Positions 1 through 41,714 of a stretch of 64,000 nt of DNA are shown here, piece after piece. The notes under the pieces are model-generated. The model was not told the origin of the DNA. It saw nothing but the letters and a program-made list of their open reading frames with translations, and searched no databases. Position 1 is the stretch's first letter. Every line of letters starts with the position of its first letter. A program made the position numbers and the translations under genes. This DNA comes from an uncultured bacterium. Lineage in GTDB: Bacteria > Hydrothermota > Tepidihabitantia > SM23-42. The stretch spans positions 27,886-91,885 of the forward strand of contig CBFDDH010000005.1 in the NCBI GenBank assembly GCA_965603515.1. Direction: 5' to 3'.

Positions 1-2061
1 TTTTTCAATGGCGTGATTGCTGATTAGATATATGCCCTTTTTTTGGAAGAACTTCCTGATTTCCACAATAGATTTGCCTGAACGAACCATACGAACAATA
101 CTGGGATCGAATTTCAAAACTTCATATAGCCCTTCACGTCCAAAATACCCAGTATTATGACACTTCGCACAGCCGACTGGATGAGCGATACGCACCGGAA
201 TATCATTAGTAAAAGGCATGAGTATATTCCGTTCATTCGAAGAAATCTCCGTTACTTTCTTGCAGCATGAACAGAGTTTCTTGACCAATCTCTGCGCAAC
301 TACACAGATAACTGCATCTGCTATAACGCCGCTCTCAATGCCCAATCTTTCAAGTCGGAAAACAGCTGTCGTCGTATCAGTTGTATGCAGCGTCGTTAAA
401 GTAAGATGGCCTGTACTTGCAAAATCCATTGCCATTTTTGCAGAATATTGATCTCTAATCTCTCCAAGAAAGATTACATCCGGGTCCAATCTCACCACTG
501 ATTTAAGCAATGTCTTAAATGTTATACCAGCTTTTTCATTTACCTGCTGTTGATTTGCAAAAGGCATAAGATACTCAACCGGGTCTTCAATCGTCACAAG
601 ATTTCCTACCTTGCATTCTATGTGTGAGAGTAAACTATAAATCGTTGTAGTCTTGCCAGACCCTGTTGGTCCAACAACCAAAATCAGACCACGTGTTCGA
701 TTGATGACATCCATCATTGTATCAGCCTGTTCATTAGTCATCCCAAGCTCGTTCAATTTTTTTGGTTTGGCATACGGTTGCAGCATTCTTATTACGATAT
801 TCTCACCCTCTGGTGTTGATGCAGTAGCTAAACGGAGTTTATAATTCTTGTCGTCAATCACCGCTTCCAAGGCACCATCCTGGGGTCTTCGTCGCTCAGC
901 TATATCCATACCGCTAATTGCCTTGAAACGACCTATTAACATAAAGCCCATTTTCTTTTCCAGAGTAAACATATTTCTCATATCACCATCTATTCTAAAA
1001 CGAATAGTGCAATCGTTTTTCTTTAGCTCAATGTGTACATCACTTGCTCTTTCTGATGCAGCCGCGAATAGTAGTCTGTTTGCAATGCCAGAAGTCGATT
1101 GATCTTCAGTATCCAGATTGTAAGACGGAGTAGTAGTTTTTGGATCAACAGGCTCAACGAGCCCCTCTACTTCATTGGTACTGAAATCCTGAGATCGTAC
1201 TGTATCATCTTCGTCTTGATTAGTATGCAATATTGATTCAATATTTATTGGCGGAGTAATCGTAAGCCTCAGTCTTTCGTTTTGTGAGTAGAATCTCTCC
1301 AAAATATCAATGACTTCTAGATTAAAGGGGTTGCTCAATACAAAGGTACATTTTCTATCTTTTTGCTTTAATGCAACAATAAGATTCGATTTACAGAATG
1401 GAACGGGAAGTATACCCAGCTCAACATCATCTGGTTTGATCTTAGGTAAAAAAGGAAGTTTTAGATAATCTGCGATATACACCGACATGCTTGTATTATC
1501 AATACCGATTCCATGTGCTGTTGAATAGAGACTTGAATGGTGCATCATATCCAGTTTATATTGCTGTTCAGGCGATAGATTTAGTTTGTCAGACAGAAAT
1601 TCTTTGAATTGAATGAAATTAGATGAAGTAAGACTGACGTCTGACTTAACCGCATCTCCCCGGAAATCTTTCCATCGCAGGGCAGTTTTGAGATGATAAC
1701 GAACGTTTTCAAACAAGATGTCTTTCTTTATAGGCTTAACAAGATAACCCACCGCGCCGAGGGCGAATGCCTTTGTTCGATCTTTTTCCTTTTTTAAAGC
1801 AGTCACAAATACAACCGGAATGAAGGCGGTTTCTGATTTTTCCTGGAGTTTGTAGCAGAAGTCATAACCATCCATTTCCGGCATCATAATATCAAGCAGA
1901 ATAAGATCGGGCGTGACATCTCGGAGTATCTCCAAACCATGGAACCCACTTTCCGCAATCATAACATCATAACCTTCACCGCTCAATAAACTCTTGGTTA
2001 GCTTTAGTATATTACTGTCGTCGTCGACAACCAGAATAAGTGGTTTAGCTGAACTATTCAT
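1..2061 (-). CDS. REC (response-regulator receiver) domain fused to a GspE/PilB-family type II secretion / type IV pilus assembly ATPase. The C-terminus runs off the window start (3' partial). Not in the ORF track because no stop codon lies inside the window.
   Basis: Manual minus-strand translation from ATG (complement 2061..2059): MNSSAKPLILVVDDDSNILKLTKSLLSGEGYDVMIAESGFHGLEILRDVTPDLILLDIMMPEMDGYDF... (REC: DD pair, phospho-Asp in LLD, T and K downstream). Then a GspE N-domain-like segment. ATPase motifs: Walker A GPTGSGKTTT (~640-690), LVTIEDPVEY, Walker B DVIFLGEIRD, His-box TGHLTLTTLHT, C-terminal tetracysteine CSCC...CAKC zinc motif. Frame checked codon by codon; it is open from 2061 down to nt 1. 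Confidence 0.8.
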   Translation of the reverse strand, partial: MNSSAKPLILVVDDDSNILKLTKSLLSGEGYDVMIAESGFHGLEILRDVTPDLILLDIMMPEMDGYDFCYKLQEKSETAFIPVVFVTALKKEKDRTKAFALGAVGYLVKPIKKDILFENVRYHLKTALRWKDFRGDAVKSDVSLTSSNFIQFKEFLSDKLNLSPEQQYKLDMMHHSSLYSTAHGIGIDNTSMSVYIADYLKLPFLPKIKPDDVELGILPVPFCKSNLIVALKQKDRKCTFVLSNPFNLEVIDILERFYSQNERLRLTITPPINIESILHTNQDEDDTVRSQDFSTNEVEGLVEPVDPKTTTPSYNLDTEDQSTSGIANRLLFAAASERASDVHIELKKNDCTIRFRIDGDMRNMFTLEKKMGFMLIGRFKAISGMDIAERRRPQDGALEAVIDDKNYKLRLATASTPEGENIVIRMLQPYAKPKKLNELGMTNEQADTMMDVINRTRGLILVVGPTGSGKTTTIYSLLSHIECKVGNLVTIEDPVEYLMPFANQQQVNEKAGITFKTLLKSVVRLDPDVIFLGEIRDQYSAKMAMDFASTGHLTLTTLHTTDTTTAVFRLERLGIESGVIADAVICVVAQRLVKKLCSCCKKVTEISSNERNILMPFTNDIPVRIAHPVGCAKCHNTGYFGREGLYEVLKFDPSIVRMVRSGKSIVEIRKFFQKKGIYLISNHAIEK

Positions 2062-2371
2062 AAATGACCTCGATTCGTTCAAGATAATCCTTCAACTTAT
2101 CTACACACTTCCTTATCTGCTCTTCATTTCTTTCTTGTGCTGCTTGTTCAAGAAATTCGCCGATTTCACTTATCACATCAAATCCATATGCACCGCCAGA
2201 ACCACTCAAACCATGTCCCAATGTTTCGATTCTCACAAAATCATGATTCTCTAATAAAACTAAAATCACATCGACTTTGTTGTTGATGTCTACGAGATAA
2301 CCAGGAATCAGATCTTTTATCTCGGCTAAAGCATATACAATTATTCTATTACCATTTTTGTGGCTTAGCAT
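2054..2371 (-). CDS. Small putative Hpt (histidine phosphotransfer) domain protein
   Basis: 105 aa. The segment LGHGLSGSGGAYGFD resembles the Hpt phospho-His motif HxLKGSSxxxGA. Stop TAG 2054-2056 lies 2 nt before the REC-GspE ATG, and the upstream gene stops 1 nt before this ATG (translational coupling). Confidence 0.45.
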   Translation of the reverse strand: MLSHKNGNRIIVYALAEIKDLIPGYLVDINNKVDVILVLLENHDFVRIETLGHGLSGSGGAYGFDVISEIGEFLEQAAQERNEEQIRKCVDKLKDYLERIEVIYE

Positions 2372-2372
2372 A

Positions 2373-3059
2373 TCAATTTTGAGCTAATTGAGTTAATTCA
2401 TTCATATACTGTAAAAGCTCATTATACTTTTTTTTATACTCTAAGAACAAATCCTTATAGTTATTATCGTTTTCGTCATCCACCATCTCTCTTTCTTCAT
2501 CAGCGATCATCTTTTCAAGCGATGGTATAAATTCTTCTATTTCCTTGCCGTCATACTCAGTCTGTTTTTTCTGACTAGGTTCTAAGAATCCTTCTTCTTC
2601 AAGCCACTTGCGAGGATCGATGAGGTCCTGAGATTCTTCTTTTTGTAACCATATTTCCTTCGCTTTGTTGACATCAGCAATCACCGCGGGATAAAATCCT
2701 CTTACTTCAGATATATACAACTTCGGGAAATCAATATTTTTCTCATCGTACTTGATGAGTTTATACTGTTTAAAATATTTCTGAAATTCACTTTTCGCGC
2801 TTTCATCAGCCTCACTATACAGTCCTACTATTGGTGGAATATCAATATCGAGTTTCTGACAAAGTCTAAATAGTGTCCCCTGCATAATTATTTCAAGCAA
2901 CAGATTAATATTTGCTATAATTATGTTGAATCTATTTTTGAATCTACAAATCATCTCGAGTGTTTCAGAACGAGTCCCGATTGCTATTATCCGCTCCCTG
3001 CAGAGTAGATCGCATAATTTTTTTCTTATATCTTTATCCGGCTCGATTAGAAGAATCAC
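2373..3059 (-). CDS. Pseudo-receiver-like protein, paralog A (REC-like N-terminus lacking the canonical DD / phospho-Asp; acidic, coiled C-terminal half)
   Basis: 228 aa. N-terminus MILLIEPDKDIRKKLCDLL reads like REC beta1-alpha1, but with E-P-D in place of DD, and IIIANI where the phospho-Asp strand should be. About 55-60% identical to the 5529..6224 product (shared ...GTLFRLCQKL..IPPI...YPxVIADxNKAxExWL..EES...RKWLEEEGFLE). Confidence 0.5.
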   Translation of the reverse strand: MILLIEPDKDIRKKLCDLLCRERIIAIGTRSETLEMICRFKNRFNIIIANINLLLEIIMQGTLFRLCQKLDIDIPPIVGLYSEADESAKSEFQKYFKQYKLIKYDEKNIDFPKLYISEVRGFYPAVIADVNKAKEIWLQKEESQDLIDPRKWLEEEGFLEPSQKKQTEYDGKEIEEFIPSLEKMIADEEREMVDDENDNNYKDLFLEYKKKYNELLQYMNELTQLAQN

Positions 3060-3305: not shown

Positions 3306-3333
3306 TTGTCTTATATTAGTATGACCATATAAT
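3306..3333 (+). promoter_or_regulatory. Putative sigma70-type promoter (TTGTCT-N16-TATAAT) giving a leaderless or near-leaderless transcript for the REC gene
   Basis: -10 TATAAT at 3328-3333 ends 7 nt before ATG 3341. -35-like TTGTCT at 3306-3311. Confidence 0.35.
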
Positions 3334-3340
3334 TCAGTAA

Positions 3341-3700
3341 ATGAAAAAACGAATCTTGGTTTGTGACGATGAGGAATCGATCAGATTATTACTCAGTGAG
3401 GCGCTAAATGACACCTACGAAGTAATCGAAGCATCTGATGGCCGCGAGGCAGTGAAAATGATCACGAAAGAACCCTTTGATCTACTCATTACCGACATAA
3501 AGATGCCGAGGACACATGGTTTTGAGGCAATTGAACGTATCCGAGAAAGAAATAAATCAATACCCATCGTTATCTGCTCTGCTTACCGACTGATGAAAGA
3601 TGATGTTGTAGTAACTACCTCGGATGTGGCGGCTTTCTTTACGAAGCCGATCGACATGAAGGCACTTAAATCTAAAGTGCTTGAACTCATCGGTACGTAG
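3341..3700 (+). CDS. Single-domain CheY-like response regulator (REC)
   Basis: 119 aa. MKKRILVCDDEESIRLL (DD), LLITDIKMP (phospho-Asp), VICSAY, FFTKP (conserved K). Stop TAG directly abuts the next ATG. Confidence 0.85.
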   Translation: MKKRILVCDDEESIRLLLSEALNDTYEVIEASDGREAVKMITKEPFDLLITDIKMPRTHGFEAIERIRERNKSIPIVICSAYRLMKDDVVVTTSDVAAFFTKPIDMKALKSKVLELIGT

Positions 3701-4294
3701 ATGAAACCCCGCATTGGCGAGCTTCTCGTCAAGAACGGCATAATCACTGAAGCCCAACTAAAAGAGGCTCTTGTGCTCCAGAGAGAACAAGAAAAAAGAC
3801 TCGGTGAAATCCTTATTGAATTGGGTCACCTGTCTTCAAAAGACTTGGTCTGGATACTTAGTGAACAGGCTGACATACCGTTCGTAGAAATCCGACCTGA
3901 AATGTTAGATAAGAAGCTCATTAACGCTTTCCCGGAGAATATCCTCTATGATAATAGCATATTACCGCTTTACGAAACTGAGGACAAGATTTACGTCGCA
4001 TTAGGCAACCCTATTGATACAACAGCCACACAAGCAATCAAGCGCTTCACCACAAAAGAGGTGGTTACCTCAGGCACTGACCCTTATAAAATCGAAAAGT
4101 TGCTGAACAAATTTTTTCTATCTGAGCAAATGGAAGAAAGTCTAGGACAAGAGAAAATTGACAAAACAGCTGTTAAGATCGTGACCGAAAAGGCAACCAT
4201 TGAATTCATTGATGAGTTGGGTAAGGTAACGACAAAAAAAGCCCCTCTTGAGATTATCATGACTATTAAAAAGGAAGATGGAGATGCAGAATAA
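3701..4294 (+). CDS. Stand-alone GspE N-terminal / MshEN-type domain protein (putative c-di-GMP receptor)
   Basis: 197 aa. Two tandem 24-residue MshEN motifs: RIGELLVKNGIITEAQLKEALVLQ and RLGEILIELGHLSSKDLVWILSEQ. Both match RLGxx(L/V/I)(L/V/I)xxG(L/V/I)(L/V/I)xxxxLxxxLxxQ. These are followed by the T2SSE_N beta subdomain (ILPLYETEDKIYVALGNPIDTTATQAIKRFT). No ATPase domain. Confidence 0.7.
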   Translation: MKPRIGELLVKNGIITEAQLKEALVLQREQEKRLGEILIELGHLSSKDLVWILSEQADIPFVEIRPEMLDKKLINAFPENILYDNSILPLYETEDKIYVALGNPIDTTATQAIKRFTTKEVVTSGTDPYKIEKLLNKFFLSEQMEESLGQEKIDKTAVKIVTEKATIEFIDELGKVTTKKAPLEIIMTIKKEDGDAE

Positions 4295-5325
4295 TGGATG
4301 AAATGCAACAATTACTGCAACGGACGGTTGACATGAAAGCGAGCGATCTTCATATTAGTGCTGGCTCACCGGTCATGTTACGAGTCCGTGGCTCAATGAA
4401 AAATCTAAATGCAAAACCCATTAGCCAAGAAACTGCACAAAATCTAATAAACCAAATACTCACTAAGGAACAAATCACTACTCTCAAAAAAGATCATGAA
4501 ATCGACTTCTCCCTTGACCTTCCTGATACAGGACGATTTCGAGTAAATGTCTTTCATCAACGACAAGGACTTAGCGGGGTTTTCAGAAGCATACCACATG
4601 ATATGCCCGCAATAGAAGAACTTGGTCTGCCAAAAATAATTAAAGAACTAGTCGATTTGGACTGCGGGCTCATTCTCGTAACCGGACCTACCGGCAGCGG
4701 GAAATCTACCACGCTTGCCGCAATGATAGACTATATCAATAATAATAAAGATGGTCATATAATAACCATTGAAGATCCTATTGAATTCATTCACTCTTCA
4801 AAAAAATGCGTTGTCAATCAACGCGAGGTGGGAAGCAATACCCATTCATTTGCCGATGCCTTGAGGAGTGCTCTAAGAGAAGACCCTGACTACATATTGA
4901 TCGGTGAAATGCGGGACTTGGAGACAATCGCCCTCGCACTTACTGCGGCCGAAACAGGACACTTGGTCTTTGGAACTCTCCATACTTCGAGTGCACCAAA
5001 AACAATCACCCGAGTCATAGATGTCTTCCCAATGACACAACAAGACCAGATAACAACACAGCTTTCAGAATCGCTTCAGTGTGTAATCGCCCAAAAACTG
5101 TACCCACGAATGGACGAATCTGGGCGTATTGCAGCATTCGAGATAATGATTGCAACTCAGGCAGTGCGTAATCTTATTAGAGAGAAAAAGATATTTCAAA
5201 TCGAATCAATCATACAAACCGGACGCCAACTCGGCATGCAAAATATGGAACAGTCAAAAAGGAGACTTGTTTCAGAAGGTAAGCTCTCTCCTGAATTCCT
5301 GAAGGAACGGCTGAGTCTATATTGA
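4294..5325 (+). CDS. pilT: Type IV pilus retraction (twitching motility) ATPase PilT
   Basis: 343 aa. Walker A GPTGSGKSTT, Asp box ITIEDPIEF, Walker B DYILIGEMRD, His box TGHLVFGTLHT, and the PilT C-terminal motif AFEIMIATQAVRNLIRE. Start overlaps the upstream stop (TAATGG). Confidence 0.9.
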   Translation: MDEMQQLLQRTVDMKASDLHISAGSPVMLRVRGSMKNLNAKPISQETAQNLINQILTKEQITTLKKDHEIDFSLDLPDTGRFRVNVFHQRQGLSGVFRSIPHDMPAIEELGLPKIIKELVDLDCGLILVTGPTGSGKSTTLAAMIDYINNNKDGHIITIEDPIEFIHSSKKCVVNQREVGSNTHSFADALRSALREDPDYILIGEMRDLETIALALTAAETGHLVFGTLHTSSAPKTITRVIDVFPMTQQDQITTQLSESLQCVIAQKLYPRMDESGRIAAFEIMIATQAVRNLIREKKIFQIESIIQTGRQLGMQNMEQSKRRLVSEGKLSPEFLKERLSLY

Positions 5326-5490: not shown

Positions 5491-5518
5491 TTGACAATCA
5501 AGATTCTGTTTCTATAAT
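5491..5518 (+). promoter_or_regulatory. sigma70-type promoter TTGACA-N16-TATAAT for pseudo-receiver paralog B, near-leaderless
   Basis: TTGACA 5491-5496, TATAAT 5513-5518, ATG at 5529. No Shine-Dalgarno sequence. Confidence 0.5.
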
Positions 5519-5528
5519 TGCCATACTT

Positions 5529-6224
5529 ATGATCCTTTTGATCGAACCAAATAAACGTATCAGAAAACGCCTTTGTGATCTTTTGAGTCGTGAAAGAATT
5601 CTCGCTATTGGTACTTATCCTGAGACATTGGAGATGATCGCAAAGTTTAAAAATAGAATAAATATTATTATAGCAAGTATTCGTATGTTTAAAGATATAC
5701 TTTTACGGGGAACGCTCTTTCGGCTCTGCCAGAAGCTCTATATAGAAATCCCTCCCATTCTGGTTTTTTACAGAAGGGGTGATGAGAAGATCAAGGAAGA
5801 ATTTGAGACGAACAAAGTACACTGTTCAATTATTAAGTTTGATGGTGAAGATACGAGTTTCCCCGAGCGATATATTGCGGCTATAAAAACCCTGTATCCA
5901 GAGGTCATCGCTGATATCAACAAGGCTACTGAGATGTGGTTAAAAGGCGAGGAGTCAGAAACACCGAAAGATCATCGAAAGTGGCTTGAAGAAGAAGGGT
6001 TCCTCGAGGCAATGGAGAATCTGAAGATTGGGAAATTGACCAGAGACGTAGAACAAATAATCCCGCTGATGAGGAAAATGTTGTCCGAGGAGAAAAAAGG
6101 ACCGAAAGAAAAAAAACAAAAAAAGAAACAAGAAGCTGATTACAAACGTATGTATCTTGAACTTAAACGAAAACATGATGAGCTTTTGAAGTATGTAAAG
6201 GAATTAGTCGATCTTTCAAAATAG
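5529..6224 (+). CDS. Pseudo-receiver-like protein, paralog B, with a Lys-rich tail (KKGPKEKKQKKKQ)
   Basis: 231 aa, paralog of 2373..3059. Shares the same non-canonical N-terminus MILLIEPNKRIRKRLCDLL. Confidence 0.5.
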   Translation: MILLIEPNKRIRKRLCDLLSRERILAIGTYPETLEMIAKFKNRINIIIASIRMFKDILLRGTLFRLCQKLYIEIPPILVFYRRGDEKIKEEFETNKVHCSIIKFDGEDTSFPERYIAAIKTLYPEVIADINKATEMWLKGEESETPKDHRKWLEEEGFLEAMENLKIGKLTRDVEQIIPLMRKMLSEEKKGPKEKKQKKKQEADYKRMYLELKRKHDELLKYVKELVDLSK

Positions 6225-6225
6225 A

Positions 6226-7767
6226 ATGTTTTCTGTTTTAATAGTAGTAATACTCTTCATCATCCCTCAAATTGTCACAGGACAAAATATATTTAAAGAT
6301 GTGCAAAATCGCTACCCGCGGGTGCGCCAAGCTCGAGAGAACTGTGAATACGATATTGACTCGCTTTTTCAAACGAGGGGCATTAACTATCCACCAGAAG
6401 AAATTTTAATAGTAGCTTATAAAAAAGAACGGCTTATTCACTTATGGGCACGCTCTGACACCAATAAAACTCTTCTTTTTATCAAACAATATCCCTTTAC
6501 TGCATTTTCCGGCACGCTCGGACCGAAACGTAAACAGGGTGATCTCCAGATACCTGAAAGCTTTTATTATATCAATCATTTTAATCCTTATTCCAACTTT
6601 CACTTATCCATGAAGATAAGCTATCCAAATCAATCAGATAGCATACTTGGTAAAAAAGGCAGTCTCGGCAATGAAATACGTATTCATGGAAGTTTTGTAA
6701 CTATCGGCTGTATTCCGATCGGCGATGAATCAATCGAAGAACTGTATATAATATGTGTTGATATGAAATCAAAAGGGCAACACAAGATACCGGTTTATGT
6801 CTTTCCAGGAAAGATGGACAAACAAAATTGGTCAGGATTAAAGCAAGTAGCCGGTCAGGATAGTATCCTGCTCAATTTCTGGCATAATTTGCGACAAGGC
6901 TATGATATCTTCACGGCAACACACCGAAAATTGAGTTATCGAGTTAACCTAAAAGGGCAGTATATTTACTCGTACGATCACTCACATTTAAATTCATTTC
7001 CGTGGCTCGATGTGCATAATGTCCAAAATTGCTTATTCAATAGGCTTGAACCACCCGCAGACTATGAACGGACATACTGTCCTCTCGGTTCTTTTGAAGA
7101 TTGGCTAAGACATTTACCTTTGAAACCAGGTAATCCACAGGTATACCTGTATAATGGGAATGAGAAATCCTATCAGAGTGGTCACTATGCAGTAGTCGAT
7201 ATTGACGTCGGGCAAGAAGATCTGCAGCAATGTGCCGATGCGATAATCAGACTTTATGCAGAATATCTGTTTTCAAAAAACTGTCTTGATAATATCATTT
7301 TTGATCTAACTAATGGTGATGCGGTTGGTTTCAGAAAATGGGTTTCAGGGTATCGACCATTAGTCAGTGGGAATACTGTAACCTGGCACAAACGTGCGGC
7401 TTCAGATTCTTCGTATGATACATTCCGTGCATATCTGAAATTCATTTTTGCATACGCTGGAACTTATTCGATAAGTCAGGAGACACAACGTATTGAAAAC
7501 CACCGTGATATGGTGATCGGTGATATATTTATCCAAGGCGGCTTTCCCGGCCACGCAGTCCTGGTTACTGATATGGCGACAAACCCCCGAACCGGTGAAA
7601 AAGTATTCTTGCTTAGCCAGAGTTATATGCCTGCCCAGGATATACATATTTTAAAAAATCTAAATGACCCGGATCTGAACCCCTGGTATAAACTGGATTT
7701 TGGCAATACCCTGCACACTCCAGAATGGACATTTGATACTGATGACTTAAAACGGATCACCCCTTGA
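6226..7767 (+). CDS. Secreted L,D-transpeptidase-like (YkuD-fold) protein with a large uncharacterised C-terminal domain
   Basis: 513 aa. N-terminal hydrophobic signal/anchor. GPKRKQGDLQIPESFYYI and IRIHGSFVTIGCIPI resemble the YkuD His/Cys catalytic core (HG[ST]...GC[IV]). Confidence 0.45.
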   Translation: MFSVLIVVILFIIPQIVTGQNIFKDVQNRYPRVRQARENCEYDIDSLFQTRGINYPPEEILIVAYKKERLIHLWARSDTNKTLLFIKQYPFTAFSGTLGPKRKQGDLQIPESFYYINHFNPYSNFHLSMKISYPNQSDSILGKKGSLGNEIRIHGSFVTIGCIPIGDESIEELYIICVDMKSKGQHKIPVYVFPGKMDKQNWSGLKQVAGQDSILLNFWHNLRQGYDIFTATHRKLSYRVNLKGQYIYSYDHSHLNSFPWLDVHNVQNCLFNRLEPPADYERTYCPLGSFEDWLRHLPLKPGNPQVYLYNGNEKSYQSGHYAVVDIDVGQEDLQQCADAIIRLYAEYLFSKNCLDNIIFDLTNGDAVGFRKWVSGYRPLVSGNTVTWHKRAASDSSYDTFRAYLKFIFAYAGTYSISQETQRIENHRDMVIGDIFIQGGFPGHAVLVTDMATNPRTGEKVFLLSQSYMPAQDIHILKNLNDPDLNPWYKLDFGNTLHTPEWTFDTDDLKRITP

Positions 7768-8618: not shown

Positions 8619-11600
8619 ATGAAAAGATCATTTATATTATTCATATCAATATTTACAGCATTCACATTATCATGTCAAAAAAAGAAAGCTTTTCAAGCTG
8701 GGTTTGAAATCCCGGAAGGACAAAAAAGAGACGTAGAAGTCCTCTATATAACACCGGAAGGCGGGACCGAAGGACTGAGTGAAGTAGGCGAAATACTCGT
8801 CTCCTTTAATCAGCCGATGGTTCCCCTCCAAGGCGTACCAGAATTTGAAAAGAGTGGACCACTTGAAATCAAACCGGAAATTAAAGGTAGATTCAGATGG
8901 CGCGGGACATCCACCGTATTTTTTATTCCGGATCAACCATTGGTCGGTGGAACCCAATACACATGCAAGGTTCCCAAAGGCACAAAATCCTTAACCGGAA
9001 CGCAGCTCAAAACAGACTACACCTGGCAGTTCACTACCGCACGACCACAGCTCAATACTTCGAACCCATATCACAATCAGAAATGGGTTGAGCTGGAGCA
9101 CAAAATATATCTTCTTTTCAATCAACCGATGTCACCGGGAAAAGTGAAATCCTTTATCAAGTTACTCGTGCGCGACGAAAAGAGTTTCGAAAAACCAGTT
9201 TCATTTAAAACACGATCCATGACTGACAAAGAGAAACAGGGGATCGGTGCCTACTGGAAATCAGAAAGAACGATCGTTATCAACCCAGACCAAGACCTGC
9301 CAATTGAAAGTGAGGTGATGATTAAATTGCTCGAGGGTTTACCCGGAGCTTCAGGTGACTATGGCATGGAACATGAACGAACCATAACCTTTCGAACCTT
9401 TAACTATTTTAGATTTGAGGGTCTTGATAATACTATACAAAACCCCCAGGAATCAGTAAGGTTCGAGTTCAGCAACCCCGTGGTATACCAGGATTTTATC
9501 AAACACATCAAATTTAACCCGGAAATAAAAATACCTGAGCATTATAAGAACTGGACACATTCCTCGACGCGACTCTATGTCTATGTAGACCTTAAACCCG
9601 ATACTAAATATCAAGTGTTTATTGACAAAGAACTGACTGACCGTTTCAACAATAAACTCGGTGAGGATATTGTCGCGACGTTCAAAACAACAGATTATGA
9701 ACCCCAGATCAAAATAGCTACTGGTCGCGGGATCGTTGAATCGTATTCAGCAAAGCGACATCCAATTACTGTTATCAATGTAAACCGGGTCGGTAAAAAA
9801 ATGGCGCTTTTGGAACGAAGTGAGATAATCCCCACGGTCCTTAGTAGTGGCGTATTTTATGGATGGCGCAAGTACAACCCGGTGTTTAATTATGACATTA
9901 ATGAAAAATGGAAAATCAATGGCGAAAGAAACAAACGGATCACGGTGCCACTTGAACTTAAGGATGTTCTACAGAACAAAGACGCTGGTTATGTTTTCTT
10001 TGAGATCGATGCATACAAAAAGCTCCGCTATGGGCGGCGATATTACCGAGGCTTACTCCAGATAACAAATATCGGCATTTCTGCTAAATTCTCGTCGGAA
10101 AATAATCTGGTATGGGTTACGACCTTGAAAGATGCCCAACCCCTCTACAATGCGCAAGTCGAATTACGTGACGATAAAAATCGCGTGCTCTGGCAAGGCA
10201 AAACTGACCAGGACGGTCTGGTCCAAACACCAGGGTGGAAACCATTAGGTCTAGTCCCCGAGAACGACTGGAACAAACCACGGATTTGGGTATTTGCCAG
10301 AAGCGGTAATGATGAAACATTTATTGTGTCAGATGAAGGCACTGGTGTTTATCCATATGAGTTTGGTATCTCATATGACTGGAGTCCTGAACCAGAGAAG
10401 TATCAAACTTATATCTTCACTGAGCGGGGTATCTACAAAAGCGGCGAAGATGTTTATATTAAAGGTATCATAAGAGAAAAACATAAGGGTACGTGGCGGA
10501 TATCCCGTAGTGTCAAAACCGTTGACCTCGAGATCTACAATTCGCGGGATGAACAGATATATAACAGGACAACCACTGTTTCAAAATATGGTTCCTTTGA
10601 CATCAAACTCCCTATTGCATCAGATGCTCCCACTGGTTGGTATGAAATAACTGCTGACCTACCTGGTGTTAAACCTAATTTCTACGGTTCATTCAGGGTC
10701 GAAGCTTACCGACCTGCACAATTCGAAGTAAAGGCACAGAGCGAAAAAGAAGAATACATCTTTGGCGATGAATTCGAGGGCGAAATAAAGGGGACTTATC
10801 TCTACGGCGGGCCGATGGCCGGAGAGAGTGCCGAGTGGATAATAACCCTTGATCATTCATATTATACACCACCTGGTCATAAAGGCTATCGATTTGGTCC
10901 ATCTTATTGGTACGATGATGAGGATTGGGAATTCGAAGGGGTTATTGGATCAGATGCTGGTGAACTTGACCAATATGGCAAAATGAAGCTACAAAAGAAA
11001 CTCGCTCAGGAAGATATACGAAGAACAATGCTACTTACTCTTGAAGGATCAGTGACTGCCGAAAATCGACAAACCCTTTCAGGACGAACAAATTGCCTGA
11101 TCCATTGTGGTGAGTATTATATCGGAATAAAACCCCAGAAAACGTTCATCGAAATAAAAAAATCAAGCCAGTTCGAGTTTATCACAACAAGACCCGATGG
11201 GGAATTGACCGTCAAGAAAAACATTAGCGTCGAGATCATCCGAAGGGAATGGATAAGTGTACGCAAAGCTGGTGTTGAAGGTAGATTCGAATGGATTACT
11301 GAGAAGAAAGACAGTATTGTCAGCAAATTCAAAGTGAAGACCAGCGAAAGTCCAGTCGCTAAGTCCTTTACGCCTGAAAGAACTGGCTTTTACATAATCA
11401 AAGCTCAGGGTAAGGATTCCCGTAACAATACCATCATTACGAGTACCTACTTTTACGTAACTGGTGCTGGCTATATATCTTGGCGAAGAAACGACGACGA
11501 CCACGTGGAGATTATCCCGGATGAAGAAAAGTACAAACCTGGCGATGTCGCAAAAATACTCGTTAAGTCGCCCTATGAAAAAACCCTTGCCTTAGTTACG

Positions 11601-14294
11601 ATCGAACGTGAGTTCATTATTGACAGATTTACTCAGGAGCTGATCGGATCGAGTGATCTCATTGAAATTCCGATTAATGAAAATTACTTACCCAATGTCT
11701 ACGTCTCGGTTATCCTCATCCAAGGTAGAAAAGGATTTGATAAATTTGATGAAGCAGGTAAGGATATTGGCAAACCATCTTTTAAAATTGGTTACACAAA
11801 TCTTAAGGTAGACCCTGGGACAAAACATCTTGATATTACAATTACTACTAACAAAGATGAGTATAGGCCTCAAGATTCAGTGATGGTGAAACTGAAGGTC
11901 GCTGACCATAAAGGTCAGGGGGTTAAATCAGAGATCATCCTCGCAGTAGTAGACGTTGGGGTACTGAACCTTATTGGTTTTGAAACACCTGACCCATTCC
12001 CCATGTTCTATGGCTCCAGACAACTCTCTGTACAAACTGCCGAGAGCCGACTGCATATTATAGGTCAAAGAACTTATGATGAAAAAGGCGAGAACCGTGG
12101 CGGCGGCGGAACAGCGGCGGCGCCCTTTGCCTACCGCTCTGAATTCTTGACAACCGCATATTATAATGCTCGTATCTATACGAATTCAAAAGGTGAAGCA
12201 GTAATACGCTTCAAATTACCCGATAACCTCACGACCTTCCGGCTCATGGCAGTCGGACACACTAAGGCCTCTTGTTTTGGTTCAAGTGATTCAAAGATCC
12301 GGGTGAAAAAACCGCTTTTGTTGCTTGAGGCATTACCCCGATTTGTCCGGCTCGGCGATGAATTCGAAGCCGGTATTGTTGTCCACAATAATACGAACGT
12401 TTCTGGTAACGTGGTGGTCGAAGCCTCGGCTGATAATATCACACTCGTTAATGAAAGCAAAGAAACGCTGGAAATCCCTGACGGTCAAGAAAAAGAAATA
12501 CGCTTTGAGTACCGCGCTCACCAGGTCGGTCAAGCAACCTTCAGATTCAAAGTGACCATGGGACAGGAATCAGATGGGGTTGAATTAAAAATACCCGTGA
12601 TCTCACCGCGTCTGACCGAGGCTGTTGCATTGTATAGCCAGACCATAGACAAAATCGCTGAAGCAATCACTGTACCAAAAGACATATACCCAGATGTTGG
12701 CTATATTGAGTTTACAACTTCGTCATCAGCGCTTGTCGGACTTGAAGGTGGTGTTGAATACCTTATTAAGTATCCGTATGAGTGTCTTGAGCAGAAGACA
12801 TCGAGGATTCTACCGTTCATCCTCGCTGAAGATTTAATCAATTCTTTTGACCTTTCTGAGCTGAAGGGCAAAGACCTTAGAAAAGAAGTCCAGAATACTC
12901 TAAAAGAATTCAAAGATTTTCAACATTACAATGGTGGCTTCAAGTTCTGGCCGGACTCCTGGTATCCATCACCATGGTTAACTGCTTATGCTGTAAATGT
13001 GCTCGCAAAAGCAAAAAAGAAAGGCTATTACGTTGACATGAACATGCTCAATAGAGCAATAGACTACTTGAAAGATGTACTACGCCGCAGCGATGTTGAT
13101 TGGGAATATCCCTATAATAAAAATGTTCAACTCACCACCAAATGCTTTATCCTGTATTCACTCGTGCTATGGGATGTCTACGACCACGGCTATATGTCCA
13201 GACTCTTTGACAAACGTGACCAGATCTCACTTTTTGGCAAAACCTTGTTGCTAAAATCAGCCCATATCTACGGAAATTCATATTACAGGAAAGAACTACG
13301 GAGGATGATCCTCAACAAAATACATATGGCATCGACTACTGCTCATTTTGAAGAACCGGATGCGATCGGCATGGCTTGGATATGGCACTCCAATGTCAGA
13401 ACTACTGCGCTTATTCTCCAGGCATTGCTCGAAACTGGCGGTGAATTTGCCAATGCGGAAAAGATAATCAAGTGGTTAGTAACCGAAAGGAAAATCGGTC
13501 GCTGGCGTTCAACTCAAGAAAATATCTATGTCTTTGATGCATTCAATACATATTTTAGAATCTACGAAAAACAAACCCCCGATTTCATGGCGACTGTCTA
13601 TCTTGAGAATAAGGAAATCCTAAAAGAAATCTTCAAAGGCAGGGAACTACAGATACGAAGAAAAGAAGTGGGATTAGGTGATCTGACAAAAGGCAAAAAA
13701 CTGCCGGTTAATATTGAAAAAAGTGGTGACGGACGACTATACTATGGTCTGCGCATGCTTTACGCCCCCACGCGCGAACTCAAACCACGGGATGAAGGTC
13801 TCGCAGTATTCAAAGTGGTGGAGCCGCTCGCTGAAGGACTCTCTGGTGATGAATTGAGCGCCGGTAAAATCTACAAGGTAACGCTCAGTATTGTTACGCC
13901 CCAAGAACGTAATTTCGTAGTAGTCGATGATCCGCTTCCAGCTGGTGTTGAGGTCATAAATACATCATTTGATACTGAAAGCAAACAACTCCTCAAAATG
14001 ATGGATGGTAACATGGACTACTATGATGAATATTATGTAGAAGATTATTACGGCGGTGAGTATGATGACTACTACTATTACTATCCATCATGGGGTACAT
14101 TCGACCACTGGGAAATCTATGATGAAAAAGTTCTTTTGTTTGCTGATGCCTTAAGAGCAGGCGAGCATACCTTCTCTTATCTCGTACGTGCAATGACATT
14201 TGGGAACTTTACAATGCCACCAACCAAAGCCGAGGAGATGTATACACCTGAGGTTTTTGGGTATAACAGGCAACGAAGACTGGTGGTCAAGTAG
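8619..14294 (+). CDS. Bacterial alpha-2-macroglobulin family lipoprotein (ECAM/YfhM-like) with an intact thioester motif
   Basis: 1891 aa. Signal peptide plus Cys (MKRSFILFISIFTAFTLSC). Thioester YPYECLEQKTSR (bacterial CLEQ form) around nt 12770-12800. Gly/Ala-rich putative bait region GENRGGGGTAAAPFAY about 230 aa upstream of the thioester. Many MG-domain-like beta-rich repeats. Unusual Tyr/Asp/Glu-rich C-terminal insert. Confidence 0.8.
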   Translation: MKRSFILFISIFTAFTLSCQKKKAFQAGFEIPEGQKRDVEVLYITPEGGTEGLSEVGEILVSFNQPMVPLQGVPEFEKSGPLEIKPEIKGRFRWRGTSTVFFIPDQPLVGGTQYTCKVPKGTKSLTGTQLKTDYTWQFTTARPQLNTSNPYHNQKWVELEHKIYLLFNQPMSPGKVKSFIKLLVRDEKSFEKPVSFKTRSMTDKEKQGIGAYWKSERTIVINPDQDLPIESEVMIKLLEGLPGASGDYGMEHERTITFRTFNYFRFEGLDNTIQNPQESVRFEFSNPVVYQDFIKHIKFNPEIKIPEHYKNWTHSSTRLYVYVDLKPDTKYQVFIDKELTDRFNNKLGEDIVATFKTTDYEPQIKIATGRGIVESYSAKRHPITVINVNRVGKKMALLERSEIIPTVLSSGVFYGWRKYNPVFNYDINEKWKINGERNKRITVPLELKDVLQNKDAGYVFFEIDAYKKLRYGRRYYRGLLQITNIGISAKFSSENNLVWVTTLKDAQPLYNAQVELRDDKNRVLWQGKTDQDGLVQTPGWKPLGLVPENDWNKPRIWVFARSGNDETFIVSDEGTGVYPYEFGISYDWSPEPEKYQTYIFTERGIYKSGEDVYIKGIIREKHKGTWRISRSVKTVDLEIYNSRDEQIYNRTTTVSKYGSFDIKLPIASDAPTGWYEITADLPGVKPNFYGSFRVEAYRPAQFEVKAQSEKEEYIFGDEFEGEIKGTYLYGGPMAGESAEWIITLDHSYYTPPGHKGYRFGPSYWYDDEDWEFEGVIGSDAGELDQYGKMKLQKKLAQEDIRRTMLLTLEGSVTAENRQTLSGRTNCLIHCGEYYIGIKPQKTFIEIKKSSQFEFITTRPDGELTVKKNISVEIIRREWISVRKAGVEGRFEWITEKKDSIVSKFKVKTSESPVAKSFTPERTGFYIIKAQGKDSRNNTIITSTYFYVTGAGYISWRRNDDDHVEIIPDEEKYKPGDVAKILVKSPYEKTLALVTIEREFIIDRFTQELIGSSDLIEIPINENYLPNVYVSVILIQGRKGFDKFDEAGKDIGKPSFKIGYTNLKVDPGTKHLDITITTNKDEYRPQDSVMVKLKVADHKGQGVKSEIILAVVDVGVLNLIGFETPDPFPMFYGSRQLSVQTAESRLHIIGQRTYDEKGENRGGGGTAAAPFAYRSEFLTTAYYNARIYTNSKGEAVIRFKLPDNLTTFRLMAVGHTKASCFGSSDSKIRVKKPLLLLEALPRFVRLGDEFEAGIVVHNNTNVSGNVVVEASADNITLVNESKETLEIPDGQEKEIRFEYRAHQVGQATFRFKVTMGQESDGVELKIPVISPRLTEAVALYSQTIDKIAEAITVPKDIYPDVGYIEFTTSSSALVGLEGGVEYLIKYPYECLEQKTSRILPFILAEDLINSFDLSELKGKDLRKEVQNTLKEFKDFQHYNGGFKFWPDSWYPSPWLTAYAVNVLAKAKKKGYYVDMNMLNRAIDYLKDVLRRSDVDWEYPYNKNVQLTTKCFILYSLVLWDVYDHGYMSRLFDKRDQISLFGKTLLLKSAHIYGNSYYRKELRRMILNKIHMASTTAHFEEPDAIGMAWIWHSNVRTTALILQALLETGGEFANAEKIIKWLVTERKIGRWRSTQENIYVFDAFNTYFRIYEKQTPDFMATVYLENKEILKEIFKGRELQIRRKEVGLGDLTKGKKLPVNIEKSGDGRLYYGLRMLYAPTRELKPRDEGLAVFKVVEPLAEGLSGDELSAGKIYKVTLSIVTPQERNFVVVDDPLPAGVEVINTSFDTESKQLLKMMDGNMDYYDEYYVEDYYGGEYDDYYYYYPSWGTFDHWEIYDEKVLLFADALRAGEHTFSYLVRAMTFGNFTMPPTKAEEMYTPEVFGYNRQRRLVVK

Positions 14295-15857: not shown

Positions 15858-18335
15858 CTATTGCTTCTGCTTAAGCTTTTCCAGTTTTTGTTTTTTCTTC
15901 TCTTCTTCTTCGGTTAAAACCTTGATCGTATGTTCGATCTCCTCTTTGGTAACCTTTTTTCGTAATTCTTCGACATCCTGCATGGTTTTCTGGAATCTCT
16001 TGCCTTCTGCCGCGCTGATCCATTCAAGCAACAACCTTTCTGGACGTATCCCCAATTTTTCCAATTTATCCCAGAGCTTCTCTACCCTCTTCTGGGTCCA
16101 GCGGTTAGCATCGATGTAGTGACAGTCAACATAATGACACCCAGATACAACAACCATGGGCGCACCGTTTCTAAATGCACTGAGGATGAATTCTTCATGG
16201 ACCCGTCCGCTGCACATCGTGCGGATGAGTCGCTGGTTGGATGGATACTGTAATCGGGCTCCACCACATGTATCAGCACCTGCATATGAACACCAGTTGC
16301 AAGCAAAAACGATCACCTTATCCTGTGGGTCTTCAGTCAGATGTGCATCGATCTGGGTTATGATTTGATCGTCTGTAAAATGTTTCATCGAAAGTGCACC
16401 AAAACGACATTCAGCTGCACACGTGCCGCAGCCTTTGCATAAAGCTTCAACATAGGTGATCGTTTTATTCTTCGGATCGACCGTGAAAGCATTATAAGGA
16501 CAAACTTTCGAGCACATAGCACAGTATCGGCAGAGATCCTGATTCAAGGTTGATGTTATCGCCTCGAGTTTGACCTTACCTGCAGAAAGCAATGTTTCAG
16601 CCCGTGCTGCCGCTGCACTCGCCTGAGTAACCGAATCCTTCACATCCTTGGGCGCTTCAGCACAACCGGCAAAGTACACTCCAGTCGTAGTTGCATCAAC
16701 AGGTTTTAGTTTCGGATGTGCCTCCATAAAGAAACCGTCCGGGCTCTTGGATAGCGTAAGGAGTTTCTGCACCTCGGGCATATCAAGTCTTGGTGTCACG
16801 CCAACAGAAAGTACCATCATATCAAATTCATGTTCTTCGATTTTATTGGCCGTGGTATCCTCAACCATAACCTTTAAATCGTGTGTCTTTGGATCCTCAA
16901 TTATATCACCAGGGATACCTCTGATATATGCAACACCGGCTTCCTTGCTGCGTTTGAAAAGATCTTCAAAACCTTTACCAAATGCTCTAATATCGATGTA
17001 AAAAACTTTGGCTTCAATGTCAGGATAGTGGTCTTTCAGTAATAATGTGTCCTTGATCGTGTTCATACAACAGATATTACTGCAGTATGGTTTGCCGATC
17101 TTCTCGCACCGGGATCCGACACATTGAATAAAACCAACGGTCTTGGGTCTTTTTCTATCGGTAGGTCTGATAAAATGGCCGTCTGAAGGTCCACCTGCTG
17201 ACATAAGCCGTTCATATTCCATGCTTGTTATGACGTTTTCGTATTTTGTATAACCGTATTCATCTAATTCTGTAGGATCATACACATCCATACCAGTAGC
17301 AACGATTACCGTACCTACATCAAATTTAATAACCTCATCTTTCATGTCGTAGTCAATACATTTCTTGTCACATTTCTCAGCACATTTACCGCAGGCGATC
17401 GGATTTATGCCAAGACAGGATTCCATATCAATGATTGAAGCAGAGGGTATGGCCTGAGGGAACGGGATATAAATCGCCTTGCGACATGAGAGTCCCTGTT
17501 GATACTCGTCAGGGATGATCACCGGACAGACTTCAGCACAATCACCACATGCTGTACATTCTTCTGCGTTTACATAACGGGCTTTCTTGAGCACATTAAC
17601 ATGGAAATTCCCCACGTAACCCGAGATAGATTCTACCTGGCTATGTGTTAAGAGTGTTATGTTGGGATGTCGACCGACATCCATCATTTTCGGACCGAGT
17701 ATTCATATCGCACAATCCATAGTAGGATAGGTCTTTGCCAGCTGAGCCATTATACCACCGAGAGCTGGGTTTTTCTCAACCAGATATACTTTGTAACCAG
17801 CATCAGCAAGATCAAGACTTGATTGCATACCAGATATGCCACCACCGATAACGAGCGTTGCTTTAGTCACTGGTATTTCTGTCTCATCCTGAGCTTCGAG
17901 ATAACGAGCTCGAGCAATATAAGCTTTCATAATATCTTTTGCTTTCTTTGTCGCGGCTCCACGATCGTCCATATGAACCCAAGAACATTGTTCACGGATA
18001 TTCGCCATATCAACGAGATAAGGGTTAAGACCTACTGAAGAAACACACTCCCGAAATGTCGGCTCATGCATACGTGGCGAACATGCAGCAACAATAACAC
18101 GGTTGAGTTTTTGTTCTTTGATCGCCTTTTTTATCTCTGCTTGCCCAGGTTCAGCACACATATATCGGTTCTTTGCCGTGTATACGACATTACCGATTTC
18201 TTTAGCATCCTCGACGAGTTTGTCGACATCGACTGAACCAGCTATATTCGTACCACATTCGCACACAAAAACACCAATCCTTAAATCATCCTGCGGCACT
18301 TTAATCACCTCCTTTGTGGATAAGGTTATCCTCAA
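15858..18335 (-). CDS. hdrA: HdrA (heterodisulfide-reductase subunit A family flavoprotein) with a C-terminal MvhD domain. Selenoprotein: the in-frame TGA at 17703-17705 is read as Sec. The ORF track splits it into 17703..18335 and 15858..17687.
   Basis: Across the TGA the protein reads ...[26 protein letters not shown]. This aligns to the canonical HdrA ...[25 protein letters not shown], where Sec takes the place of the second Cys. N-terminal CxCGxNI 4Cys domain. GGGISGMQSSLDLADAG FAD motif. Multiple CxxCxxCxxxCP ferredoxin motifs. C-terminal MvhD (FACNWCSYAGAD...VVSGCHYVDCHY). Confidence 0.8.
17665..17682 (-). promoter_or_regulatory. SECIS-like hairpin in the mRNA: GGAUGUC-GGUC-GACAUCC (7-bp stem, GGUC loop), 20 nt downstream of UGA 17705..17703
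   Basis: Perfect stem. The GGUC apical loop resembles the SelB-binding loop of the E. coli fdhF SECIS. The identical 18-nt sequence occurs after the second in-frame UGA, at 25630-25647. Confidence 0.55.
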
Positions 18336-18338
18336 TCT

Positions 18339-19223
18339 TCATACTTTCACACTTCCATTTATCTTCTCCAATACTTTGTCTGCTTTTATTCGATGGGTAT
18401 GCAGACCAACCTGCTCGACAGTCAAACCCTGTGCAAGACCGAGCAGCTGGAAAAGATAAATAACCGGAATATTATAGCTCTTTCCCTTTTTACGGGATAT
18501 CATTATTTGACCTAAATCAAATGAAGAAAAACATGTCGGGCAGATCAAACCCATACAATCAGCACCACTTTTCTCGATCGATGCAAAGATCGCTTCAGTC
18601 ATTTCCAAGGGCAGTTCATCATCCATACATCCTTTTCCGCAACATAATACTTTTTCATGATGTTCAAGCGGGATTGCACCCATGGCAGTTATAAAGTCTT
18701 CAAGTATATCCGGGTAATCAGCATCATCAACATGCATAACCTGACTCGGTTTTAATATGTGACAACCATAATGAATCGCCACGGTAATTTCTTCAAGGGA
18801 TTTTTTTATTGATTTCTTTACTGCTTCGAGACCAAGATCATCTCTTATCATCTCAACGGCATGCTTTATTATTATCTTACCTTTATATTCCCGATTAATT
18901 CTCTTCAATCGTTTATTCACCTCATCTTTCAATGCTGGGTCTTCATTAAGGAGAAATTGTGCTTCTTTCAGAGTTGAGATACACCCGGAGCACATCGTAA
19001 TCAGCATATGTCCAGTCTCTTCAGCTACCGCTAAATTTCGAGTGGCCGTTACCAACCATTTCATCTTATCACGTGACTTGAAGTAAATAGGATCGGGGCA
19101 ACATGTAAAATTTTCAATATCAACAAGCTCAACACCTAATAGCGGTAAAGTGTTTCTCAGTGCCAATTCCATTTGAGGGTATTTGAGAGGCATCATACAA
19201 CCCCAGAAAGGCACGACCTTCAT
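18339..19223 (-). CDS. hdrB: HdrB-like subunit (two CCG cysteine-rich domains)
   Basis: 294 aa. CCPD...C and LCCGKGC / CPTC motifs typical of HdrB CCG domains. Confidence 0.75.
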   Translation of the reverse strand: MKVVPFWGCMMPLKYPQMELALRNTLPLLGVELVDIENFTCCPDPIYFKSRDKMKWLVTATRNLAVAEETGHMLITMCSGCISTLKEAQFLLNEDPALKDEVNKRLKRINREYKGKIIIKHAVEMIRDDLGLEAVKKSIKKSLEEITVAIHYGCHILKPSQVMHVDDADYPDILEDFITAMGAIPLEHHEKVLCCGKGCMDDELPLEMTEAIFASIEKSGADCMGLICPTCFSSFDLGQIMISRKKGKSYNIPVIYLFQLLGLAQGLTVEQVGLHTHRIKADKVLEKINGSVKV

Positions 19224-19273
19224 GATCGTACCACGGCTTTCTTTTCACATAATTCAATCAACACAGCAGCTCC

Positions 19274-19795
19274 TTATTTATCGATCGTTTCATCGGCTGG
19301 TGTTACTTCTTTATCTTCAAGGATTGTATTTAACTCATCGATCGGGATCGTCTTCAGTACTGGAAGCCCTAATTGCTCTCTTCTTCTGTTGATTGCTGAA
19401 GATACTGTCACACTCATGCCGGTTTTCGCAATATTATCTGAAAGCTTGGCCAAGTTGACAGGTGCAGTTCCTTTTTCTACGGCCATGTTCTTGAGGGCAA
19501 CAATCACCTCAATAGGACGCACGTCCTGCGGGCATCTTTCATAACAGGAATAGCAATTCGTACAGAGCCATATCGCTGAATCCTGACCCAGGAGTTCTTC
19601 TTCCATACCCAACAATGCCTTTAATAATATTTTTCGCGGGTTGAACTCTTTTGAAAACCTTGCGGTTGGACAGACTGCAACACAGGCACTACATTGATAG
19701 CAATAGTTATGATGCTTTCCGCCGGATACCTTATTTAGCTTTTCGCGAAATCGGTAATTTACTACTATTTTATCTTTTGCCATTTTAGCCACCAT
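19274..19795 (-). CDS. hdrC: HdrC-like 4Fe-4S dicluster subunit
   Basis: 173 aa. CYQCSACVAVCP and CTNCYSCYERCP. Confidence 0.75.
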   Translation of the reverse strand: MVAKMAKDKIVVNYRFREKLNKVSGGKHHNYCYQCSACVAVCPTARFSKEFNPRKILLKALLGMEEELLGQDSAIWLCTNCYSCYERCPQDVRPIEVIVALKNMAVEKGTAPVNLAKLSDNIAKTGMSVTVSSAINRRREQLGLPVLKTIPIDELNTILEDKEVTPADETIDK

Positions 19796-21385: not shown

Positions 21386-21431
21386 TATTTAATCATTCAA
21401 CCTTTCAACCATTTTGTAACCATTCAACTAT

Positions 21432-25835: not shown

Positions 25836-25866
25836 TATTTTTATCTATTCCTTTCTTAGATTAAAA

Positions 25867-28434: not shown

Positions 28435-28526
28435 CCGTCAGACCTCCTTTCAACCATCTTTCAATATAACGCTTACCTATTCCAAACGTTAAATGTTTTT
28501 TCTCTGTACCGCTATCTTCATAAGGT

Positions 28527-29420: not shown

Positions 29421-29431
29421 TCTACACTCCC

Positions 29432-41705: not shown

Positions 41706-41714
41706 GAGGCGATC

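Follow-up and report, generated by a model that had tools for sequence, protein, structure and literature searches.

A predicted stand-alone c-di-GMP receptor of the MshEN family encoded between a CheY-like receiver and the retraction ATPase PilT in WOR-3 bacteria

Introduction

In the published work that we searched, control of type IV pili by cyclic di-GMP (c-di-GMP), a second messenger, acts on the extension side, through the MshEN domains of the ATPases MshE and PilB and through the FimX–PilZ–PilB pathway, and no dedicated c-di-GMP receptor for the retraction ATPase PilT was found described. The same literature, in which not all journals were covered, yielded no description of a pair of stand-alone MshEN protein and PilT, of PilT-dedicated c-di-GMP sensing, or of pili in WOR-3 bacteria. 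Here we analyze a gene for an MshEN protein without an ATPase that lies between the genes for a CheY-like receiver and PilT in a stretch of 64,000 nucleotides (nt) from an uncultured bacterium (GenBank assembly GCA_965603515.1, contig CBFDDH010000005.1, positions 27,886 to 91,885 of the forward strand; hereafter, the window). We lean towards the view that this protein is a free-standing MshEN-type c-di-GMP receptor in a WOR-3 signalling operon (PAS kinase, receiver, MshEN, PilT) and acts, together with the receiver, on PilT.

The published MshEN motif is RLGxx(L/V/I)(L/V/I)xxG(L/V/I/F)(L/V/I)xxxxLxxxLxxQ, which occurs twice, with a spacer of five residues. The original prediction for this locus assumed that the domain is known only as the N-terminus of MshE and GspE ATPases, and on this point it has to be corrected. 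Supplementary Table 4 of Wang et al. 2016 includes the ATPase-less proteins PA3740, cce_1044, Bd2402, NfrB, FrgA and an MshEN-REC protein (REC, receiver domain), and c-di-GMP binding has been experimentally shown for some ATPase-less MshEN proteins (PMC5013675). The published fused architectures include REC–MshEN–T2SSE, MshEN–REC and REC–MshEN_N, and Bd2402 and Glov_2262 are REC–MshEN fusions without an ATPase (PMC5013675). Such proteins are also common in an exhaustive hmmsearch of 1.84 billion representatives with a profile of the family described here: of the 29,562 cluster representatives matched at E ≤ 0.001, many are 150-460 amino acids (aa) long and lack an ATPase domain.

The MshEN gene and its junctions

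The stand-alone MshEN gene (3701..4294, forward strand) runs from ATG to TAA and encodes 197 aa. The receiver gene upstream ends with a TAG (3698-3700) that is followed immediately by the ATG at 3701, and the TAA of the MshEN gene (4292-4294) has one base in common with the ATG of the PilT open reading frame (ORF; 4294-4296), giving TAATG, with a GGAG about 10 nt 5' of the pilT ATG. Thus, the abutment to the CheY gene and the overlap with the pilT start that were originally noted are both read directly in the sequence. One gene caller moves the pilT start to the second ATG (window position 4303); the orthologues favour the longer, 343-aa form.

No T2SSE or P-loop match was detected in the 197-aa protein in scans with the Pfam and NCBIfam hidden Markov models (HMMs), which, together with the end of the ORF at the TAA, bears out the claim that this is an independent protein without an ATPase. 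The MshE/PilB/GspE ATPase class is defined by MshEN and T2SSE in one polypeptide; the 197-aa protein has only the former and is unfused in 30 of the 30 loci compared below. By sequence, motif and fold (HMM and PDB matches and an AF2 model), it belongs to the MshEN family but not to the MshE/PilB ATPase class.

The c-di-GMP site

Both 24-residue motifs are readily recognized, the first at residues 4-27 (R4-I-G-E-L-L-V-K-N-G-I-I-TEAQ-L-KEA-L-VL-Q27) and the second at residues 33-56 (R33-L-G-E-I-L-I-E-L-G-H-L-SSKD-L-VWI-L-SE-Q56), separated by the five residues REQEK. In a phmmer search of all PDB sequences, residues 2-113 align with residues 7-118 of Vibrio cholerae MshE (PDB 5HTL) over 112 residues (E = 6e-14); because this alignment is ungapped, all motif residues are in register, and the misalignment that would have undermined the original assignment did not materialize. 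The NCBIfam model NF053729 ('cyclic di-GMP-binding domain, MshE-related'), which represents the 53-residue c-di-GMP site, matches residues 4-56 over its positions 1-53 with 64.6 bits (E = 5e-18; cut-off, 38 bits), and Pfam MshEN (PF05157) matches the C-terminal subdomain, residues 58-142 (E = 5.9e-12). The two motifs, originally called intact, are so in register, spacing and profile score, except that motif 2 deviates at position 11, where a histidine (His43) occupies a site that is L, V, I or F in the published motif.

An AF2 model of the protein, obtained with an alignment of 58 homologues (predicted local distance difference test score, pLDDT, 86.5), has four helices bundled at residues 5-57, then an alpha/beta subdomain spanning 61-148 and, after it, an extended beta-hairpin made up of residues 155-170 and 176-190. 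These parts correspond to the 53-residue four-helix c-di-GMP bundle (residues 4-56), the MshEN_C or N1E-like alpha/beta subdomain (residues 61-148) and a subfamily-specific extension, the long beta-hairpin (residues 155-190). In a Foldseek comparison with the PDB, the first rank is taken by the MshE/c-di-GMP complex 5HTL, with template modelling (TM) scores of 0.79-0.81 on the target and root-mean-square deviations of 2.6-2.7 Å, followed by the N-terminal domains of PilB and PilF; the C-terminal hairpin found no PDB match in this search.

Conservation among the 58 homologues is concentrated in the predicted site. No variation occurs at G6, Q19, L20, A23, L24, Q27, G35, E36, L49, S54 and Q56, and conservation reaches at least 90% at L9, G13, L34, L38 and G42; the mean column conservation is 0.75 in the motif region, the highest in the protein, compared with 0.66 in MshEN_C and 0.50 in the hairpin. 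The free-standing 197-aa protein is, therefore, almost certainly a c-di-GMP binder, as predicted from these sequence features.

The receiver and PilT

The gene directly upstream (3341..3700, forward strand) encodes a CheY-like single-domain receiver of 119 aa (Pfam Response_reg, E = 2.3e-25). Its phosphorylation residues, namely the acidic pocket (D9 and D10), the phospho-acceptor D52, S80 and K102-P103, are all intact, and D9, D10, D52, S80 and K102 are invariant among 20 orthologues; judging from these residues, the receiver is predicted to be phosphorylatable. The gene directly downstream (4294..5325, forward strand) encodes a canonical retraction-type ATPase of 343 aa that scores 477 bits with the PilT model TIGR01420 (cut-off, 319 bits), aligns end to end with Pseudomonas aeruginosa PilT (3JVU; E = 6e-115), and contains the Walker A motif GPTGSGKST, the Walker B/Asp box (GEMRD), the His box (HLVFGTLHT) and the AVRNLIRE motif. 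As stated in the original prediction, this PilT has no N-terminal sensor domain, nor any other extra domain. A consensus scan, which is weak evidence, detected a promoter-like site at 3306..3333 on the forward strand (TTGTCT-16-TATAAT, 10/12 matches) that ends 7 nt before the receiver ATG, and no terminator-like site on that strand from the receiver gene to the end of pilT.

Conservation of the operon

Approximately 80 full-length homologues of the 197-aa protein were found (193-203 aa, 45-100% identity), all of them in metagenome-assembled genomes (MAGs) of WOR-3, Stahlbacteria or TA06. Only proteins of about 197-202 aa matched the family profile over its full length, including the hairpin; the longer matches that reach profile positions 170-190 are multi-MshEN PilB-type ATPases, and no fusion of MshEN and hairpin to PilT was seen among the best 150 matches of this search.

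PilT lies directly downstream of MshEN in all 30 loci compared, and an intact receiver lies directly upstream in 29 of these; in the remaining locus, which comes from a WOR-3 MAG, only a remnant of 38 codons is left of the receiver (L013:1883-1996), with MshEN and PilT intact. Whether orthologous loci keep the three modules separate or fuse them had been raised originally as a check, and the answer is unequivocal: receiver, MshEN and PilT are separate, tightly packed genes in 29 of the 30 loci and fused in none. In nearly all loci, the junctions measure from -11 to +7 nt between receiver and MshEN and from -17 to +6 nt between MshEN and PilT, the few larger values being artefacts of automatic start-codon calls. 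In 24 of 29 loci, the gene immediately upstream of the receiver encodes a kinase with PAS, HisKA and HATPase domains, and HD-GYP-type and GGDEF genes lie within 6 kb in 18 and 2 of the 29 loci, respectively. In the closest other species (L008, 86% identity), the gene string reads kinase, REC, GGDEF, HD-GYP, HD-GYP, REC, MshEN, PilT and a pseudo-receiver, with genes for both c-di-GMP synthesis and breakdown inside it.

The C-terminal hairpin was seen only in the subfamily that is linked to the receiver and PilT, where it accompanies an upstream receiver in each of 29 loci. The paralogues of 146-154 aa from WOR-3 and TA06 that lack the hairpin have neither receiver nor PilT neighbours (L031-L034, L036). 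Some of these paralogues, in two TA06 loci (L034:6001-6465, L036:1200-1652 and L036:4371-4811), adjoin DUF6982 proteins, of which two adjacent genes are confirmed by Pfam and three further neighbours resemble them in sequence at the N-terminus; another pairing linked to c-di-GMP may be represented here.

A different arrangement is found in at least 14 loci of Omnitrophota and Planctomycetia (L049, L050, L058, L059, L062, L064, L072, L076, L078, L081 and L083-L086), where the gene order is pilT, stand-alone mshEN (146-167 aa), pilB, pilB. The motifs of these stand-alone proteins start with K and with L or I, which is the GSPII-B pattern. Because these proteins lie beside PilT and have neither a hairpin nor a receiver neighbour, the hairpin appears to track the receiver rather than PilT as such; it may thus serve to couple the protein to the receiver, although the comparison covers two clades only. 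Both the kinase–REC–MshEN–PilT operon and the C-terminal hairpin are specific to the family of the window protein.

Proposed mode of action

In the mode of action that we favour, the HD-GYP and GGDEF enzymes that are often encoded alongside would determine the level of c-di-GMP, and c-di-GMP would load the MshEN protein; once loaded, it would dock on PilT and/or on the phosphorylated receiver via its N1E-like subdomain and the C-terminal beta-hairpin. PilT would then be subject to two inputs, phosphorylation and the second messenger, and the N1 sensor domain that PilB and MshE carry in cis would be supplied to it in trans. As for the sign, we can only guess that high c-di-GMP would restrain retraction, by analogy with MshE and PilB, where high c-di-GMP favours piliation and attachment. 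Functional coupling of the REC, MshEN and ATPase modules is supported by the published REC–MshEN and MshEN–ATPase fusions; that PilT is the direct target we infer from the conserved gene order and translational coupling. The more specific proposal, namely that a detachable c-di-GMP receptor controls pilus retraction in WOR-3, with MshEN either docking on PilT or bridging PilT to phosphorylated CheY via the hairpin, is a tentative one, to which we assign somewhat less than even chances.

Several observations weigh against action on PilT. Conserved gene order points to co-expression rather than contact, and MshEN could equally well bind to the pilus platform, to a PilB-type ATPase or to the receiver. 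The known complexes of MshEN_C or N1E domains are with GspL or PilZ and not with ATPase cores (PDB 4PHT and 7LKM, from the Foldseek list). In Omnitrophota and Planctomycetia, where the stand-alone mshEN lies between pilT and pilB, PilB is an equally plausible target. The organism of the window itself lacks the upstream kinase of most of its relatives and has, in place of it, a divergent operon encoding an Hpt protein and a PilB-like ATPase. Furthermore, pilC, pilM, pilQ, pilins and other pilus genes were not found in the 64-kb window, the remainder of which is metabolic or housekeeping, so that a functional pilus in this organism is only putative. The non-canonical His43, finally, touches the binding step itself and is discussed with the third alternative below.

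The alternative that best withstands the evidence, although we consider it unlikely, is that the protein does bind c-di-GMP and its target is the pilus platform (PilM/GspL/PilC-like) or a PilB-type extension ATPase instead of PilT. It could serve in trans as the sensor half of the neighbouring REC–N1E–T2SSE ATPase or compete with the N1 domain of PilB for the platform, and co-transcription with pilT would merely coordinate expression. The neighbour in question is a REC–MshEN_C–T2SSE ATPase of the PilB/GspE type with a tetracysteine motif, which is encoded on the reverse strand at 1..2061, where the window includes the first 687 of its 715 codons and cuts off the 3' end (the full gene is at L001:4214-6361, reverse strand). 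A motif scan did not find the four-helix c-di-GMP motif in this ATPase, even though it has MshEN_C, and, accordingly, of the seven signalling and ATPase proteins encoded at the locus, the 197-aa MshEN is the only one that the scan recognized as a c-di-GMP receptor. The identity of the partners in the solved complexes, GspL and PilZ, speaks for this alternative as well, as does the position of mshEN directly 5' of PilB genes in Omnitrophota and Planctomycetia, given that these PilB proteins have low MshEN scores of their own (23-47 bits). However, the PilB-like neighbour is restricted to the lineage of the window organism (L001), whereas the partners that are conserved over 29 loci are the receiver and PilT.

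It is rather less probable that MshEN is mainly the output partner of the receiver, that is, a coincidence detector of receiver phosphorylation and c-di-GMP that acts on a non-pilus target such as an envelope or secretion system or the c-di-GMP enzymes. The co-occurrence of the hairpin with an upstream receiver, together with its absence from the stand-alone proteins that have PilT and no receiver, fits this scenario, although the correlation comes from two clades only. It is also in line with the existence of the ATPase-less fusions Bd2402 and Glov_2262 and with the clustering of HD-GYP genes with the operon. If PilT were irrelevant, however, it would be hard to explain why it lies downstream in every one of the 30 loci, at junctions that overlap or nearly abut.

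The possibility that the domain is not a c-di-GMP binder at all, and that its helices are structural or serve protein docking, as in the N1 domains of XpsE and GspE and in GSPII-A of PilF, we regard as quite improbable. The residue corresponding to His43 is Phe in V. cholerae MshE and Tyr in 53 of the 58 family members, and the relaxed form of the published regular expression has to allow His at this position in order to match motif 2; across the family, that expression matches twice in only 28 of the 58 members, and the first position of motif 1 is Leu instead of Arg in 13. However, the Gly, Leu and Gln ligand contacts are invariant or nearly so in the 58 homologues, the NF053729 cut-off is exceeded by a wide margin, and XpsE, a known non-binder, has lost several key residues (G11V, L29R, R38G, G40L, L54H, L58C and Q61V). 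Some family members have L at position 4, the first of motif 1, or K at position 33, the first of motif 2; GSPII-B of PilF has such first-position K and L substitutions and still binds c-di-GMP at 6 nM (PMC11731258), so these variants are compatible with binding.

That the three ORFs represent an assembly or frameshift artefact, or the decaying split of a single REC–MshEN–ATPase gene, is hardly credible: in the window, the receiver and MshEN ORFs are in the same frame with a single TAG between them, and fused REC–MshEN–T2SSE proteins exist, but the three ORFs recur in 29 independent assemblies with junctions of 0, ±1, 2, 3, 5-7, -4 and -11 nt, PilT falls within the PilT/PilU clade, in which N1 domains never occur, and all three proteins of the triplet are under purifying selection. 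Stop-codon read-through across the REC-TAG-MshEN junction was considered separately and rejected because the frame and length of the junction vary across loci; with junctions differing in this manner, there is no conserved read-through context.

Other genes of the window

The divergent operon and the REC–MshEN–PilT operon start from one intergenic region. The first gene of the divergent operon (2373..3059, reverse strand) encodes a 228-aa protein that is a paralogue (49% identity) of a 231-aa protein encoded downstream of pilT (5529..6224, forward strand); the AF2 model of the latter is a receiver fold without the phospho-acceptor Asp and with a C-terminal helix, that is, a pseudo-receiver. 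The two paralogues flank both ATPase operons and are predicted to combine a receiver fold lacking the acidic pocket with a linker that is disordered and, C-terminal to it, a long helix. WOR-3 has at least 81 homologues, none with a Pfam or NCBIfam match, and this looks like an undescribed pseudo-receiver family. The link to the locus extends to close relatives only: a homologue of the 231-aa protein is encoded 3' of PilT in L002 and L008 and nearby in L006. A weak phmmer match of the 231-aa protein to bacterial STING (7EBL, E = 0.025) was dismissed because the paralogue gives no such match and the protein itself is modelled by AF2 with a receiver fold.

Between the 228-aa gene and the 715-aa ATPase gene lies the gene for a 105-aa Hpt phosphotransfer protein (2054..2371, reverse strand; Pfam Hpt, E = 7.4e-6, above the gathering score). 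The 715-aa ATPase is thus preceded by an Hpt gene and a pseudo-receiver gene, which suggests a phosphorelay-controlled extension or secretion ATPase. A perfect sigma-70 consensus site (TTGACA-16-TATAAT; 5491..5518, forward strand) precedes the ATG of the 231-aa gene by 10 nt. If WOR-3 bacteria use promoters of the sigma-70 type, this site and the one at 3306..3333 would give leaderless or near-leaderless mRNAs.

Two nt past the stop codon of the pseudo-receiver gene begins a gene for a 513-aa protein (6226..7767, forward strand) that carries DUF4846 at its C-terminus (E = 9e-98) and weakly resembles YkuD in its N-terminal region, followed by a methyltransferase gene (in the L001 gene table) and a gene for a bacterial alpha-2-macroglobulin of 1891 aa (8619..14294). 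A redox block on the reverse strand (15858..30649) encodes FlpD/MvhD-like and CCG (Hdr-like) proteins, a 1405-aa multi-domain flavin/Fe-S oxidoreductase and two sets of 2-oxoacid:ferredoxin oxidoreductase; such a block fits an anaerobic way of life and has no relation to the MshEN finding. Further downstream (40212..45509, forward strand), two encoded proteins end in Por_Secre_tail sorting domains of type IX secretion; the organism therefore probably has a type IX secretion system, which is relevant to the question of which surface machinery PilT serves.

Significance and comparison with known systems

The conserved operon, with a predicted c-di-GMP receptor and a CheY-like switch directly before pilT, provides a concrete candidate for a PilT receptor, one that would illustrate how phosphorelay and second-messenger inputs might be combined on one motor, and supplies a candidate receptor to the HD-GYP and GGDEF enzymes that are encoded beside it in the uncultured WOR-3 phylum. 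Should action on PilT be borne out, this would be the first dedicated second-messenger receptor for the PilT motor, with the sensor domain that is fused to PilB and MshE elsewhere supplied in trans, and the pilT–mshEN–pilB clusters seen in Omnitrophota and Planctomycetia would embody the same principle independently. The value of the finding is limited in that all the parts are known domains, ATPase-less MshEN proteins are already documented, and contact with PilT is putative. What we describe looks like a new arrangement of known parts rather than a new part, an add-on sensor for pilus control.

Compared with V. cholerae MshE (5HTL; PMC5013675), the window protein has the same fold, the same tandem 24-residue motifs and the same five-residue spacer; in MshE, however, the domain is in cis on an extension ATPase, whereas in the window it forms a 197-aa protein of its own, which has an additional C-terminal hairpin and is encoded beside the retraction ATPase PilT. 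A separate c-di-GMP receptor that controls a pilus motor ATPase through protein contact has a parallel in the FimX–PilZ–PilB system of Xanthomonas and Pseudomonas (PMC8389850, PMC5595344); there, the receptors have other folds, PilZ and a degenerate EAL domain, and act on PilB, the ATPase of extension, instead of on PilT. The stand-alone proteins of the Omnitrophota and Planctomycetia pilT–mshEN–pilB–pilB clusters share with the window protein the lack of an ATPase and the position beside PilT. Unlike it, they have no hairpin and no receiver neighbour, are encoded downstream of pilT and upstream of pilB, and are only about 30% identical to it.

Two further groups come nearer. PA3740, cce_1044, Bd2402, FrgA and NfrB (PMC5013675) likewise have MshEN without a T2SSE ATPase, although none of them is described in a REC–MshEN–PilT operon or with a hairpin, and the likeness established to PA3740 and its kind (MshEN–xT2SSE_N1) is the shared lack of an ATPase beside MshEN. 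The REC–MshEN–T2SSE ATPases, such as Gmet_3473 of Geobacter metallireducens, combine a receiver, MshEN and an ATPase of the secretion superfamily in the identical order. They are, however, fused and of the PilB/GspE type, whereas here there are three genes and the ATPase is PilT; the representative of this architecture that adjoins the operon in the window lacks the c-di-GMP motif. Taken together, the 197-aa protein most resembles, in kind, the ATPase-less MshEN proteins and, in module content, the REC–MshEN–T2SSE ATPases.

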